This document shows, piece after piece, positions 2,051-21,260 of a DNA stretch of 21,327 nt. Within the stretch, counting starts at the first letter, position 1; every line of letters begins with the position of its first letter. The DNA comes from an uncultured delta proteobacterium (GTDB lineage Bacteria; Desulfobacterota; Syntrophobacteria; BM002), in assembly GCA_963712115.1 (NCBI GenBank), contig CAVQGX010000048.1, positions 1 to 21,327 of the forward strand. The letters run 5' to 3'. The translations under genes were made by a program, and so were the position numbers. The notes below the pieces were generated by a model. That model did no database searches and was not told the origin of the DNA. It was given only the letters and a program-made list of their open reading frames with translations.

Positions 2051-2401
2051 ATGGGTGCTATGAAAGACAGACGTTCACACCTAAGGACTGCTGTAGATTG
2101 GCCTGCCATGGTCATAACCCCTGGAGCGTGCATAGGAGGTGAAATAAAAAATCTAAGTCCATCAGGTGCCTTTTTTCACTGCTTTACTGAACCCGAGCGG
2201 GGCCAACCTCTGCGCTTGGTCTTTAGGGATCCAATTCGCAAGAAACTTATAGTGCTGACAGCAGAAATGGCATGGTCAAACATCGCAAATTCCGACGACA
2301 TAAGTTCTTGTGGAATAGGAATTGAATTCAGCAATACCTTAAGTTATGAGCAGTTGTTTCTCGACACTTGGACCTCGGAACATCTCCAAGCTACAGTCTA
2401 A
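2051..2401 (+). CDS. PilZ domain protein
   Basis: DRRSHLR (RxxxR), NLSPSGAF (D/NxSxxG), GIGIEF. Start at ATG 2051 or 2060 is more likely than the ORF-track start at 1922. Confidence 0.85.
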   Translation: MGAMKDRRSHLRTAVDWPAMVITPGACIGGEIKNLSPSGAFFHCFTEPERGQPLRLVFRDPIRKKLIVLTAEMAWSNIANSDDISSCGIGIEFSNTLSYEQLFLDTWTSEHLQATV

Positions 2402-2488
2402 AAATTACATAACACTCTAATGTTTCAACAAAGAGTTGAAGTGAAATGGTGCTCTCAGTGGGAACCTCTCTGTCTCGAGGATTTGAAA

Positions 2489-2857
2489 ATGACGCGAGGA
2501 GTTGAAAGGCGGTTGCAACCGCGAGTCGAGATTAGATGGCCTGTTACGGTCTTAACCACCCAAACGACAATTGAAGGTGAGATCCACAACGTAAGTCCCT
2601 CCGGAGCTTTCATCTCTTGTAAGGCTGTTCCTCCACTGGAGGGTAGTTTTTTTATAATAATTAAACCTCCCGAGCGGCAAACAATCAGTGTTGCAGGCAA
2701 GGCGGTGTGGTCGACTACCCTAGAGACCGAAGAAAGCAACCCAATTCTTGGAGTGGGTGTCCAATTCACAAATATCACTCCAGGAGATCTCAGATTCTTG
2801 AACCAATTTGTTAAGAGCTACAAAAATGAAAAGAGGCCGCTAGATAAAATTACCTGA
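2489..2857 (+). CDS. PilZ domain protein
   Basis: ERRLQPR, NVSPSGAF, AVW...GVGVQF. GAGGA SD before ATG 2489. Confidence 0.88.
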   Translation: MTRGVERRLQPRVEIRWPVTVLTTQTTIEGEIHNVSPSGAFISCKAVPPLEGSFFIIIKPPERQTISVAGKAVWSTTLETEESNPILGVGVQFTNITPGDLRFLNQFVKSYKNEKRPLDKIT

Positions 2858-3068
2858 AGTATGCCTTCGATCTTTAATCCTACCCTTTTTCCCCTTAAAT
2901 AATCTAATACTCTGGAGCCGGATATTTCATTACAGGTCCTGAAATCTGCTTCTTCCCCGCATAGCCGGATGTTCCACGGGCCAGGTTAAAGTTAAATCGC
3001 TTTGTTGATAAAGATGCGAGCTGTTTTCGAGTACTGGAGTATTTTGATGCTTGAGTAGCTAAAGATTC

Positions 3069-3202
3069 CAAATAAATCACAATGACCAACATTTAAAATC
3101 CCAAACTTTTGCATATTTATAAAATTATTCGAAATTTGTTTTGGTCATTGAAAATTGGAATTTAGGATTTGTTTGTAATTTGGTGCTTGGGATTTGGGAT
3201 TT
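3069..3202 (+). repeat. Imperfect palindromic intergenic repeat with ~7-nt periodicity (copy 1)
   Basis: CAAATAAATCACAATGACCAA...GTTTTGGTCATTG...TTGGGATTTGGGATTT. Aligns nearly end to end with the reverse complement of 4882-5018. Confidence 0.85.
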
Positions 3203-3327
3203 CATTACTCCATCACTCCGTTGACTCCGGAATGCTCGCGCATCAAGGAAAGACGTTATGAGCACCCATCCCTATGGGTGGAGGTCAAAGATTGTCAATC
3301 ACCGTTAATTTTTGTAAGGTTTGTGAT

Positions 3328-12400: not shown

Positions 12401-12526
12401 TGGAAGCACAAGTTTGATCTTCGACCATATTGGAAAGCCGACAAGGAAGCAAGAAACGGGAAGTTGAATATCTGGTCACAAGAGAATTATGTTTATCCGA
12501 AGGAGTGGAGGAAGGGGAAGCGTAGA
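12401..12526 (+). pseudogene. 3' remnant of a thermonuclease (SNase-like) gene
   Basis: Translates as WKHKFDLRPYWKADKEARNGKLNIWSQENYVYPKEWRKGKRR, matching the SNase C-terminal pattern A..EAR..K..IW......P.EWR. No start or catalytic half. Confidence 0.6.
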
Positions 12527-12530
12527 AAGA

Positions 12531-12590
12531 CAACTATATTTTGTGAGAGAGTAAATTTAAGCGGAGTGTGAATTAATGGATGTAATCCAC
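12531..12590 (+). repeat. Composite box + dif-like site, copy A (interrupted by the IS1111-type element; continues at 13882)
   Basis: CTATATTTTG 12534-12543, 22 bp, GTGTGAATTAA-TGGATG-TAATCCAC|TTT from 12566. Confidence 0.8.
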
Positions 12591-12605
12591 ACCTATGAAA
12601 AAGCT

Positions 12606-12776
12606 GTTTGTCAAGTCAAAGATCTCTGTAACTGCCCGCTTGTAACCACGATATTGGGCTCATCGCCAAACACCTATCCGTGTTCACTCAAAGATGTCAC
12701 ACTATCATGTATGTGATAAACGGCGTCCCAATCACTTTCTCGGCCTCACCTTTTGTGGGCCATGTGGATTAACGGG
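12606..12776 (-). ncRNA. Bridge/seekRNA candidate of the IS1111-type element
   Basis: Two consecutive stem-closed internal loops on the minus strand, carrying TAATCCAC + GAAAGTG (target flanks) and ATCACA + ATAGGTGT (circle junction). Exact RNA ends are unknown. Confidence 0.8.
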
Positions 12777-13793
12777 TTACGCACATACAGGATAGGTCTC
12801 CATGTAAGGTGTTTGGTTTTTCCAAACGTAGAAAGCGTACTGCAAGATCTTATGGGCTGTGGCCACAATGGCCTTTTGATAGCCCGCCTTGACGATTCTT
12901 CTCCGGAAGAAAACACGCAAGCGGCAATTTTGCATTCTGGCTGCAGCCTGGGCAGCTTCGACCAGGGCGGTGCGCAGGTAGCGGGATCCTTGTTTGGTTA
13001 TCCTGCCCCTTTTCTCTTTGCCAGCACTGGCATCTAAACAAGGCACCAGACCAGCGTAAGAAGCCAGGTTCCGATATGAGCGAAAGCGGGAGATATCGTC
13101 TACCTCCGCTACAATGAACATGGCTGTGATAGGTCCAATGCCAGGGATAGTCATAAGAAGCTGGGCTGTATGGTTTTCCTTTGCCAGGACACGGACTCTT
13201 TTGCTTAAAGGCTCAATCTGCTCTTGGAGCCCTTGATAAAGTGAAAGATAAGTCTCGACTTGTCGGCGGTGGTAATCTGGCAAGTCAATCTCTTTGATAT
13301 AGCTCAATCCCTGAATACCAAAAAGATCGCTAAAAGGACTTCTGAAATTATTCTTCATCAGCAGCATATGAATACGGTTCTTCATGCGGGTGGCATCTCG
13401 AACCAATCTGCTTCTATGACGAAGTAGTTCCTTGAGTTTGCGTGTCTCAAGGCTGCTTACATGAACGGTAGAGATCAAATCATCCCTTAGAAGCTGAGCC
13501 AGCATATGAGAGTCTATCTTGTCGTTTTTGATCTTGGCCGAAGCAATGGCCTTGGTCTTCACTGGATTGGAGATCGCAACCTCAAAACCTTCTCCCGTAA
13601 GAAGATCATACAGCCAGTACCACGATGACATAGATTCAATGACGATTTTGCTCTCTTTGTCTAGGGTCGCAAAGTAAGCCAAAATGTCCTCTTCTACATT
13701 CTGCAGGTTGGATCGGGTGACGATCTTTCCATCTTCATCGATAGTAGTAATAAAAGATGTTTTCTTGTGTAAATCAATCCCAGTATAATACAT
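12777..13793 (-). CDS. IS110-family DEDD transposase/recombinase
   Basis: GIDLHK, IES, KNDKIDS (DEDD), IPGIGP, YAGLVP...ASAG (catalytic Ser region), ITKQGSRYLR. SD AAGGAGG. Confidence 0.97.
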   Translation of the reverse strand: MYYTGIDLHKKTSFITTIDEDGKIVTRSNLQNVEEDILAYFATLDKESKIVIESMSSWYWLYDLLTGEGFEVAISNPVKTKAIASAKIKNDKIDSHMLAQLLRDDLISTVHVSSLETRKLKELLRHRSRLVRDATRMKNRIHMLLMKNNFRSPFSDLFGIQGLSYIKEIDLPDYHRRQVETYLSLYQGLQEQIEPLSKRVRVLAKENHTAQLLMTIPGIGPITAMFIVAEVDDISRFRSYRNLASYAGLVPCLDASAGKEKRGRITKQGSRYLRTALVEAAQAAARMQNCRLRVFFRRRIVKAGYQKAIVATAHKILQYAFYVWKNQTPYMETYPVCA

Positions 13794-13981
13794 GGTGGCT
13801 ACCTCCTTTGTTTTGGGTTTCCCTCAAAGACCCCTTGTATAATACAAGGCCTCGAAGGAGGTAGCTTTTTCATATGATCACTTTCACAGTTCTCGAGATC
13901 AGTTTACCTTACTCATCATTAGTTAAGATCGCTCTCTCCTATTCAACCATCGAGTTTTTGCCAAAAAAAAGCTTCTCTCCC

Positions 13982-14010
13982 TTGACACTCATTGATTTTT
14001 AGATAATAAT
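13982..14010 (+). promoter_or_regulatory. Sigma-70 promoter candidate for the PKD gene
   Basis: TTGACA-17 nt-AATAAT, about 150 bp upstream of the CDS. Confidence 0.4.
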
Positions 14011-16455: not shown

Positions 16456-16991
16456 CTTGAAAATTCCCCGCAGCTTGCTGCGGGGTCTCTCCCTGTGCTA
16501 ATCAGGGAGTATGTCAGATGATACAGTAAGCAAAGGTTACCATTGCGCTTGGCAAATTCACTATCACATCGTATTTCCGGTGAAATACCGCAAAGCATTG
16601 TTGGACTTGGAAGTGGTGGAAATCATTGTAGAGACGGCTGAAGGTATTGCTGAGAGGTATGCCATTGAGATGGAAGCCATTGGTTGTGACAAAGAACATA
16701 TACACCTGCTATGTGGTGCCCATCCAAAGATAGCACCCGGTAGGATTGTTCAGATATTCAAAAGTATCACGGCACGCGAAATATTTCGACGTAAGCCATC
16801 AGTGAAAAAGGAGCTCTGGGGTGGCGAGTTTTGGACAGACGGCTACTATGTTGCAACAGTTGGTGAAAGGGCCAACTGGGATACAGTAGAAAAGTACATC
16901 AAGAGCCACGGTAGACCCAAAGCCGATCTCAAACAACTCAAACTGTTCGAATAAGGTTTGATACCCTGCAGCTTGCTGCAGGGTCATTCAT
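16456..16991 (+). mobile_element. IS200-type element (tnpA only)
   Basis: Subterminal hairpins CCCCGCAGC-TT-GCTGCGGGG (16466-16485) and ACCCTGCAGC-TT-GCTGCAGGGT (16963-16984). Right end probably TCAT at 16991 with guide GATA, by analogy with IS608 pairing rules. Left end uncertain by several bases. Confidence 0.88.
16511..16954 (+). CDS. tnpA: IS200/IS605 Y1 (HUH) transposase
   Basis: YHIVFPVKYRK, EHIHLL (HUH), KSITAR, LWGGEFWTDGYYVATVG, KYI (catalytic Tyr). Confidence 0.97.
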   Translation: MSDDTVSKGYHCAWQIHYHIVFPVKYRKALLDLEVVEIIVETAEGIAERYAIEMEAIGCDKEHIHLLCGAHPKIAPGRIVQIFKSITAREIFRRKPSVKKELWGGEFWTDGYYVATVGERANWDTVEKYIKSHGRPKADLKQLKLFE

Positions 16992-18988: not shown

Positions 18989-19120
18989 GTGGCACAAACT
19001 CAGAGAACCCCCCTTACACCTTTTAAATGCCCCAAGTGCAAACTCACCATCATGGCTATACCAGATGACAAAGTGTGTCCTGTCTGCGGGAGTTCGTTGC
19101 AGCAACTTGTGAAGCGTTGA
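18989..19120 (+). CDS. Small zinc-ribbon protein (43 aa)
   Basis: GTG start; MAQTQRTPLTPFKCPKCKLTIMAIPDDKVCPVCGSSLQQLVKR with CPKC and CPVCG. Shorter than any ORF in the supplied track. Confidence 0.6.
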   Translation: MAQTQRTPLTPFKCPKCKLTIMAIPDDKVCPVCGSSLQQLVKR

Positions 19121-19124
19121 AAGC

Positions 19125-19234
19125 CAACTATATTTTGTACCGACATGAAACTCAGCAAAGTGTAAATTAAGGGATGTTATGCAAAGTCTGATCACATCCC
19201 TTCCTGCTACCCACCTCACTTTCTCTGGTTGCCC
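19125..19234 (+). repeat. Composite box + dif-like site, copy B
   Basis: CTATATTTTG 19128-19137, 22 bp, GTGTAAATTAA-GGGATG-TTATGCAAAGT 19160-19187, tail CCTCACTTTCTCTGGTTGCCC. Confidence 0.85.
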
Positions 19235-19386: not shown

Positions 19387-19464
19387 GGAGGCGAGACTCA
19401 GCAGTTGGGACAATAAAAGTTTGCGGTGCTGGGGTCGTGGGTTCGACTCCCACCGCCTCCACCA
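19387..19464 (+). ncRNA. tRNA-like RNA / degenerate tRNA gene
   Basis: 78 nt: acceptor stem GGAGGCG/CGCCTCC, discriminator A, encoded CCA, perfect T-arm GTGGG-TTCGACT-CCCAC. D and anticodon stems do not pair canonically. Confidence 0.7.
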
Positions 19465-20420: not shown

Positions 20421-20515
20421 TGCCAATATCTTGTGTCAGAGTAAATTCCAGGATAGTGTGAATTAAGGGATGTAATGCAAAGTCTGCCCCCCCTCCATGC
20501 TGCCACCCCCACTTT
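20421..20515 (+). repeat. Composite box + dif-like site, copy C
   Basis: CAATATCTTG 20424-20433, 22 bp, GTGTGAATTAA-GGGATG-TAATGCAAAGT 20456-20483, tail GCTGCCACCCCCACTTT. Confidence 0.85.
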
Positions 20516-20970: not shown

Positions 20971-21105
20971 AAATTTGCGCACCAGTTGACCCTAAATCTG
21001 CAGTCCTCAAAATAACAACTGTATCTCAAAAGCGTCAGCTACACTTTTTACGTCCCTGGGCTCCAACGCGACCCCTACGGTCTGAGTTCGCTCTCGCTTG
21101 ACAGA

Positions 21106-21260
21106 TATCAATATCTTGTGCCAGATCAAATTCTCGCCGAGTGTGAATTAAGGGATGTAATATTAAGCCCGACTGAGATCCTTGGGAATTAAGCATTGTT
21201 CGATCTTATTTCAGCTCAAACCTGTCCGTACTGCCAACCTCACTTTCTCTGTGGTTGCCC
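21106..21260 (+). repeat. Composite box + dif-like site, copy D
   Basis: CAATATCTTG 21109-21118, 22 bp, GTGTGAATTAA-GGGATG-TAATATTAAGC 21141-21168, longer insert, tail CCTCACTTTCTCTGTGGTTGCCC. Confidence 0.85.

Follow-up and report, generated by a model that had tools for sequence, protein, structure and literature searches.

A probably intact IS1111-group insertion sequence with a predicted two-loop guide RNA directly after its transposase gene

The closest described systems are the seekRNA-dependent insertion sequences of the IS1111 group (ISEc11, ISKpn4, ISPst6 and ISPa11; PMC11187229) and the bridge-RNA element IS621. IS1111 transposases are described as 330-350 aa long with the motif GL-P----S(t)G, TA variants being occasional (PMC11187229). 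Their seekRNA lies downstream of the transposase gene, carries the top-strand match 5' of the bottom-strand match, and is essential and reprogrammable (PMC11187229). Subterminal inverted repeats, natural retargeting and the use of REP (repetitive extragenic palindrome) or attC targets have likewise been reported for IS1111 relatives (Siddiquee et al. 2024, PMC11187229), and for 93.0% of the IS1111 elements a bridge RNA has been predicted in the right end (RE; Durrant et al. 2024, PMC11208160). For IS621, so-called handshake guides have been described, whose additional bases form pairs with the DNA that is not their cognate partner (Hiraizumi et al. 2024, PMC11208158).

We analyzed a stretch of 21,327 nucleotides, here called the window, and conclude with high confidence that positions 12592-13878 hold an intact IS110-family element of the IS1111 group, with a predicted two-loop guide RNA directly after the transposase gene. 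The element is a good fresh example of a known RNA-guided kind; the kind of system itself is not new. The element and its insertion site are made up of the following features:

12592..13878, minus strand: insertion sequence (IS) of 1287 bp, delimited by the shared span of four genomic copies, the ends of relatives, a contig that skips the element, and empty sites
12777..13793, minus strand: transposase gene, 338 aa, identified by Pfam, NCBIfam and alignment with IS621
Within the transposase: catalytic residues D7, E53, D91, D94 and S256 (the last in GLVPCLDASAG), from the alignment with IS621
13863..13874, minus strand: left-end copy of the subterminal inverted repeat, TATGAAAAAGCT, 12 bp, 4 nt from the terminus
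12594..12605, plus strand: right-end copy of the subterminal inverted repeat, TATGAAAAAGCT, 12 bp, 2 nt from the terminus
12590..12591, no strand: core CA (TG in the orientation of the IS) on the RE side; in relatives TG is constant at both ends and its neighbours vary
13879..13880, no strand: core CA (TG in the orientation of the IS) on the left-end side, the second copy of the 2-nt duplication
12517..12591, plus strand: host repeat unit holding the target, with hairpin arms GTGAATTA and TAATCCAC; the repeat resumes after the IS from 13879

The genome to which the window belongs (4.9 Mb, 70 contigs) contains four copies of the IS, namely the one in the window and those on contigs C36 (98% identity), C42 (91%) and C41 (91%). 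When the four copies were aligned, similarity started at ...CCTATGAAAAAGCT (12592) and stopped at ...CATATGAT (13878). The left end (LE), which is the transposase-proximal one, begins with ATCATATG at 13878, while the RE closes with ...TTCATAGG at 12592, and these ends are conserved among relatives of the window element. As in the IS110 family at large, a short core is repeated at both junctions, insertion is site-specific and there are no terminal inverted repeats. The 12-bp subterminal inverted repeat is kept in relatives and lies within the 7-17 bp range of the IS1111 group. Also in keeping with that group, the non-coding DNA downstream of the transposase gene (185 nt; 12592-12776) is longer than that upstream of it (85 nt; 13794-13878), and the RNA covariance model R1 introduced below matches there, at 12654-12781. 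The 338-aa frame is intact in the window and C41 copies, both of which keep all catalytic residues, and the transposase is frameshifted near codon 45 in the C36 and C42 copies (loci L002 and L003). Despite the broken frame, the latter two copies keep the RNA, with guides that match their own flanks. Among 121 other genomes of the class, none had the transposase at an E-value of 1e-60, a level reached in the window's own genome only.

Two further observations were made in the window. An outward-facing TTGACA (12609-12614, minus strand) lies 17 nt from the RE terminus and is kept even in relatives of ~40% identity. A role as -35 box, in a junction or an outward promoter, is possible, and no good -10 box at normal spacing from it was evident in the modelled circle junction. 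Further along, positions 19431-19464 resemble the 3' part with which a tRNA or tmRNA closes, having a T-arm, an acceptor stem and CCA. Neither ARAGORN nor Rfam called a full tRNA or tmRNA there, and the stretch may be the attachment-site remnant of an integrated element.

The 338-aa protein matches Pfam families PF01548 (DEDD_Tnp_IS110; 91.5 bits) and PF02371 (Transposase_20; 101 bits), as well as NCBIfam NF033542, 'IS110 family RNA-guided transposase', with 266 bits against a cut-off of 140. Its residues D7, E53, D91, D94 and S256 align on D11, E60, D102, D105 and S241 of IS621 (chain 8wt6_A) in an alignment that is weak as a whole (53 bits) and covers mostly the C-terminal domain. The protein thus combines the N-terminal DEDD RuvC-like domain with the C-terminal Tnp domain and catalytic Ser that mark the IS110 family. 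An annotated transposase of the ISEc11 family shares 30% identity over 294 aa (E 8e-25), and the best identity in the plasmid collection does not exceed 39.7%. Its length fits the IS1111 group; the motif GLVPCLDASAG reads GL-P----S and then A where the group has G. The initial annotation had spoken of a complete, compact RNA-guided recombinase. The protein family matches, the element anatomy and the covariation of guides and flanks described below agree with an intact IS110/IS1111 member; 'compact' does not apply, since 338 aa is a normal size in a family of 330-350-aa transposases (PMC11187229).

Directly after the gene, a conserved block spans from the stop codon (GCG-UAA-CCCG) to ...GGCGAUGAGCCC in RNA sense. 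Its parts, all on the minus strand, are:

12654..12781, minus strand: conserved core of the bridge/seekRNA, ~128 nt, overlapping the stop codon TAA (12777-12779); defined by alignments A1 and A2 and model R1
12763..12771, minus strand: 5' guide of the target loop, UAAUCCA-CA, predicted to pair with the top strand (IS orientation) of core and RE-side flank; identical to 12583-12591
12742..12761, minus strand: target-loop hairpin GGCCCAC-AAAAG-GUG-A-GGCC, 2 bp of which show compensatory changes
12731..12739, minus strand: 3' guide of the target loop, GAAAG-UG, followed by AU; same sense as LE-side flank and core
12712..12717, minus strand: ATCACA, earlier proposed as a guide; a linker in the 5' strand of the donor loop
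12704..12708, minus strand: 5' guide of the donor loop, AUGAU, reverse-complementary to the first five LE bases (ATCAT); covaries in distant relatives
12670..12677, minus strand: 3' guide of the donor loop, AUAGG-UG-U, i.e. the last five RE bases, the core and one base that tracks the flank

The first part of the RNA consists of a CCCG/UGGG stem enclosing the 5' guide, a GGCC hairpin and the 3' guide with its AU. In the second part, a CGCCG/UUGGCG stem encloses an 18-nt 5' strand ending in AUGAU-NN, a GUG-A-CAY...GUG-AA-CAC hairpin and the strand GG-AUAGG-UG-N. The CCC...GGG and CGCC...GGCG closing stems, the GGCC hairpin and all strings quoted in the initial annotation are indeed present where it had placed them. 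Among 43 aligned sequences, 97.9% of the cells form standard pairs, compared with 24-41% when the partners are slid. The target-loop hairpin occurs in the compensatory variants CAC/GUG, CAU/AUG, CAG/CUG and CGC/GCG, and the compensatory changes in two pairs of this first hairpin (15 cells) were equalled in 0 of 500 shuffles. Since most of the other stems never vary, they speak neither for nor against the fold, and covariation supports the target-loop hairpin only. Two G-U pairs are kept in all or almost all sequences (43/43 and 41/43), and therefore only the transposase strand fits the fold.

It had been suggested that the region be folded and covariance-modelled. Covariance model R1, built from the alignment, scored 146.8 bits at the RNA in the window and, across the genome, picked up the four IS copies and nothing else. 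It also matched downstream of the gene in relatives of 38-44% protein identity (L101, 34 bits; L104, 18.8; L108 and L109, 17.4; L097, 10). Minimum-free-energy folds were uninformative, being no better than those of shuffled sequences (z -0.26 over 200 nt, z -0.76 over 128 nt). Rfam gave no match at gathering thresholds over the whole window, and none in the non-coding region at E-values up to 10.

With regard to expression, a scan for sigma-70-type promoters in 12450-14000 found 0, with 2.2 expected. In metatranscriptomes, contigs covering 12653-13801 with at least 88% identity came from four libraries, which belong to four studies. These are assembled contigs, which show no strand, ends or level and may stem from relatives or from DNA; the stretches that they leave uncovered (12606-12651 in two runs, and 13802-13893) are uninformative. 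Nor do contig stops near 12653 mark the end of the RNA, since the contigs have loose ends and the sequence diverges there. Judging from the covariation and by analogy with the described elements, an RNA is presumably made from the region, and the guides would act as RNA.

The target loop is related in sequence to the DNA on either side of the IS. As had been claimed, TAATCCAC is both the reverse complement of 12764-12771 and the left flank at 12583-12590, and GAAAGTG, the reverse complement of 12733-12739, complements the right flank at 13879-13885 (CACTTTC). Both matches turned out to extend to 9 nt: on the RE side TAATCCACA (12763-12771, minus strand) equals 12583-12591, and on the LE side GAAAGTGAT (12731-12739, minus strand) is also what the minus strand reads at 13877-13885. 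One internal loop thus carries two guides that are complementary to opposite target strands and overlap at the core, as in seekRNA and bridge RNA systems. Within the genome, the 5' guide and the RE-side flank agree in every copy, reading TAATCCA in the window, TAATTTA in C36 and TAATTCA in both C42 and C41. The corresponding pairs of 3' guide and LE-side flank in the four copies are GAAAG/GAAAG, CAGAG/AAGAG, GAAAG/AAAAG and CGAAG/CGAAG, with one mismatch in two of them.

To extend this comparison, relatives were collected by protein query, which yielded 7 loci in metagenome-assembled genomes of Desulfobacterota (23-75% identity) and 74 in metagenome contigs. The conserved RNA anchor was present in 55 of the 85 element sequences examined, and the anchor-bearing elements comprised 19 distinct variants of guide 1 (the 5' guide) and 26 of guide 2 (the 3' guide). 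Counting one locus per distinct guide, 109 of the 152 non-core positions of guide 1 agreed with the flank of the same locus (n = 19; shuffles averaged 60.7 and reached at most 93), as did 119 of the 182 of guide 2 (n = 26; shuffles averaged 56.8 and reached at most 86); for neither guide did any of 100000 shuffles reach the observed score. A contiguous run of at least 7 nt from the core was seen for guide 1 in 39/49 loci, 24 of them with 10/10, as opposed to 5.3% of 2144 cross pairs, in which guides were set against the flanks of loci bearing a different guide. For guide 2, runs of at least 6 nt occurred in 30/41 loci and in 4.0% of 1592 cross pairs. The guide-1 match was shorter than 7 nt in 10/49 loci: L058 and L061 had no match, L065 and L066 a partial one, and L037 and L056 one near-core mismatch, while L038 and L085-L087 failed the contiguous count through a guide that lacks a base pairing with the first core base. 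In L086 and L087 the guide does match the flank beyond this unpaired base. The misses on the LE side (L054, L069 and L087) may come from automatic end-finding or from contig assembly, and metagenome contigs can be chimeric.

The same flanks define the core. In relatives, the flank adjacent to the LE always ends in TG, preceded by G, T, C or A, and that adjacent to the RE always begins with TG. Both target guides contain the TG/CA core, and only TG is duplicated. The CAC or AC core proposed in the initial annotation was consequently rejected in favour of TG in the orientation of the IS (CA on the plus strand): the base before TG varies in relatives, and its match in the window copy is coincidental. 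The same conclusion follows from DNA without the insertion. A paralogue of the right flank in contig C39 runs uninterrupted through ...AATCCA-CA-CTTTCGC, and the orthologous intergenic repeat in a congener genome (G008) reads ...TAATACA-CA-CTTCC..., also uninterrupted. In addition, one contig from RNA library X16 joins 12589 to 13879 and so skips 1289 (1287+2) bases; since this is one contig only, whose one side measures 25 nt, it carries little weight by itself.

Locus L088 differs at the core. Here CA replaces TG at the right-end junction (CATAGG-CA-TCTCAAAAAA), the LE junction retains TG, and the 5' target guide is complementary to CA in the place of the core. In this lineage the two target guides hence differ at the core just as the junctions do (CA at the RE, TG at the LE). 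Locus L058 has the same flank as L088 with a guide that does not match, and may therefore be a chimeric contig. That the core need not be identical on both partners in this clade is unlikely; if it were true, the RNA would set the core of each half-site and the recombinase could join DNAs with differing cores.

The left flank in the window forms the end of a repeat whose core reads GTGAATTAAGGGATGTAAT, and the genome has 108 copies of this repeat (allowing at most 3 mismatches) on 30 contigs. These repeats stand in same-orientation runs, often ~0.7-1.5 kb apart, between small unrelated genes, and occur in the window at 12517-12592, 19111-19183, 20426-20479 and 21100-21161. The repeat was present in 17/17 other genomes of the genus and in 1/4 other genera of the family, and a reversed-pattern control gave 0 matches. 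Upstream of GTGAATTAAGGGATGTAAT is a semi-conserved ...ATATCTTGTGCCAG... block, often with a terminator-like hairpin, and downstream is one of about three sequence classes. The C36, C42 and C41 copies occupy the left arm, which is conserved (...AAAG-TG-TGAATTAA); that of the window is inserted at the imperfect inverted right arm, on the opposite strand. Free sites with at most one mismatch to the 15-nt target number 17 for the window copy and 6, 29 and 15 for the others, where chance predicts 0.42. The repeat resembles REP sequences, and insertion into it matches the REP-targeting reported for this IS family (PMC11187229).

AttC sites had first been suspected as the target because the genome has an integron integrase and the repeats come in cassette-like runs. 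The attC sites adjacent to the integrase (C27:1-2300) proved to be a different, canonical family from the 108-copy repeat. The contig concerned (C27:1-3300) carries the integron integrase (2356-3300; TIGR02249, 486.9 bits, cut-off 265) with small cassettes reaching the contig edge, and has at least three canonical attC sites of the CCTAAC...GGTTAGG type. As a possible source of the repeat, a REP-associated transposase was also considered and rejected. The Y1 gene at 16511-16954 scored 29 bits against a cut-off of 80 for that class and 128 bits as IS200, and the window thus contains a 147-aa IS200-type Y1 transposase gene there (NF033573).

The second loop of the RNA relates to the ends of the IS itself. 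Because the IS ends never vary among close relatives, it is the distant relatives that decide which bases are donor guides. The pairs formed by LE bases 1-5 and the 5 nt aligned with AUGAU are ATGAT/ATCAT in the window, GTCAT/ATGAC in L101, GACAT/ATGTC in L104, GTAAT/ATTAC in L108 and GCAAT/ATTAC in L097. Complementarity holds for 5/5 bases in four of the five lineages (the window, L101, L104 and L108/L109) and for 4/5 in L097. The 3' strand of the loop equals the last five RE bases plus TG, being ATAGG-TG in the window and L101, and AGAGA-TG in L104 and L097, where the RE closes with CAGAGA; L108 agrees at 4/5 bases. In the window, AUAGG-UG accordingly corresponds to RE and core and AUGAU to LE bases 1-5, with the core outside the 5' guide, and the two bases after AUGAU, where the complement of the core would be expected, vary freely (AG, AU, AA, CC, AC, UA and GG). 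Three of the four guides that had been assigned in the initial annotation were hence retained, namely both target guides and ATAGGTGT at 12670-12677, whose ATAGG and TG are RE terminus and core. The fourth, ATCACA, matches the circle junction only under a 3-nt core and gave way to AUGAU as the LE donor guide: it varies in close relatives (ATCACA, ATCAGA, ATCGAA or ATCGTA) with unchanged IS ends, and is absent from distant ones.

Additional bases follow both 3' guides. The base after the core in AUAGG-UG-N is the first base of the target flank in 43/49 loci, including all 7 with G or C instead of U, and mismatches are confined to the L071 group (4 loci), L035 and L093 (mis-parsed). By analogy, the last base of ATAGGTGT would behave like the handshake position of IS621. 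The AU after the 3' guide of the target loop equals the first two LE bases and is invariant in all A1 sequences.

Three other readings of these data were weighed. That the short matches are due to chance, or are a by-product of insertion into a palindromic repeat, might be argued from their length of 7-9 nt and from the flanking repeat, which is an imperfect palindrome (GTGAATTA...TAATCCAC). However, the same positional match recurs in unrelated flanks such as GATATCA, TTTTTCGA, GAATATCG and CTAGAAGC, and together with the 0/100000 shuffles for either guide and the 5.3% and 4.0% of cross pairs this already refutes the idea, to which we attach next to no probability. It is less far-fetched, though still rather improbable, that the first loop alone guides, in the manner of a short seekRNA, and that the second stem-loop is a scaffold or a 3' structure of the mRNA. 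Recognition of the IS ends could then fall to the flanks and to the protein, the latter acting through the subterminal inverted repeats. For ISEc11, an 82-nt short seekRNA was reported to be better for transposition than the long form, and retargeting also needed changes in the donor flanks (PMC11187229). Since this target-loop-only form is sufficient in ISEc11 (PMC11187229), the second loop may be dispensable here too. In the present element, moreover, the 5' donor guide is only 5 nt long and excludes the core, and end covariation is absent within close relatives, where the IS ends are constant. Nevertheless, both donor guides change with the IS ends in distant relatives, ATAGG becoming AGAGA along with the RE, and the post-core base tracks the target flank in all 7 non-U loci, which argues for a loop that reads the donor.

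The remaining alternative accepts the two-loop architecture but regards the window copy as a relic that is now silent, making neither RNA nor transposase, so that the match of guides and flanks merely records a past insertion. The promoter scan that found none, the frameshifts in two of the four copies, the absence of the element from the other 121 genomes of the class at E 1e-60 and the weak expression evidence all fit such a history. Conversely, the window and C41 copies combine intact frames, catalytic residues and ends with perfectly matching guides, and unoccupied matching sites persist in the genome. As copies of 91-98% identity bear different guides at different sites, activity has probably been recent, and we consider a silent relic unlikely, if somewhat less so than a single guiding loop. 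An intact two-loop element remains the reading that we prefer.

Among described elements, the seekRNA IS1111 group shares with it the 330-350-aa DEDD transposase and subterminal inverted repeats (PMC11187229), the long downstream non-coding region with the top-strand guide 5' of the bottom-strand guide (PMC11187229), and the natural retargeting of related copies (PMC11187229). Like ISPa11, it has a repeated palindromic host sequence as its target, and like the attC-targeting IS1111 elements (ISKpn4, ISPst6 and ISPa25) it is inserted at a fixed point of a repeated sequence that is foldable and associated with cassettes, although its target is not an attC site. It differs from the ISEc11 family in sharing only 30% protein identity and in an RNA of unrelated sequence that starts at the stop codon, and from the seekRNA group as a whole in having SA rather than SG or TG in the Ser motif. 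The seekRNA account, in the parts on which we draw, gives target matches only (PMC11187229), whereas a second loop reading the donor is evident here by covariation. That layout is found in IS621, which likewise has two internal loops, target first and donor second, with one guide per DNA strand in each, a 2-nt core common to target and donor, handshake-like bases after the 3' guides, and a DEDD plus Ser transposase. In contrast to IS621, where the RNA is in the LE upstream of the gene, the RNA in the window is in the RE downstream of it, the guides come in mirrored order with respect to the gene for the transposase, the core is TG instead of CT, and the LE-side donor guide does not cover the core. 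Reading the plus strand would give the IS621 order, i.e. left target, right target plus 2 nt, left donor, and right donor plus 1 nt.

Starting from the observed element anatomy, covariation of guides with flanks and IS ends, 2-nt core and empty sites, the following mechanism can be proposed. In the target loop, the 5' strand UAAUCCA-CA would pair with one DNA strand of the core and the flank on one side, and the 3' strand GAAAG-UG with the opposite strand of the core and the flank on the other side. Together, these guides would specify the 14-bp site GAAAG-TG-TGGATTA (TAATCCA-CA-CTTTC on the plus strand). The second loop would read the joined IS ends of an excised circle, AUGAU pairing with the LE terminus ATCAT and AUAGG-UG with the RE terminus and core. 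The bases after the 3' guides (AU and U) would match the other DNA partner, as handshake guides do in IS621. The circle would then be inserted by recombination at the TG core, with TG alone being duplicated. That there is a circle as intermediate, and in which order the strands are exchanged, is presumed here by analogy with the known systems.

No principle is altered by this element. What it adds is a natural data set for a system first described in 2024, with 19 and 26 variants of the two guides, each in a matching site, and with single-base retargeting among the copies of one genome. It also presents an IS1111-type RNA with the full IS621-like layout of target loop, donor loop and handshake-like bases when read on the other strand. 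Annotators can read the target, core and ends of such an element straight from the sequence. Being a distant orthologue, with which plasmid-borne relatives share at most 40% identity, and having an RNA of ~128 nt that abuts its gene, it may help the engineering of bridge recombinases.
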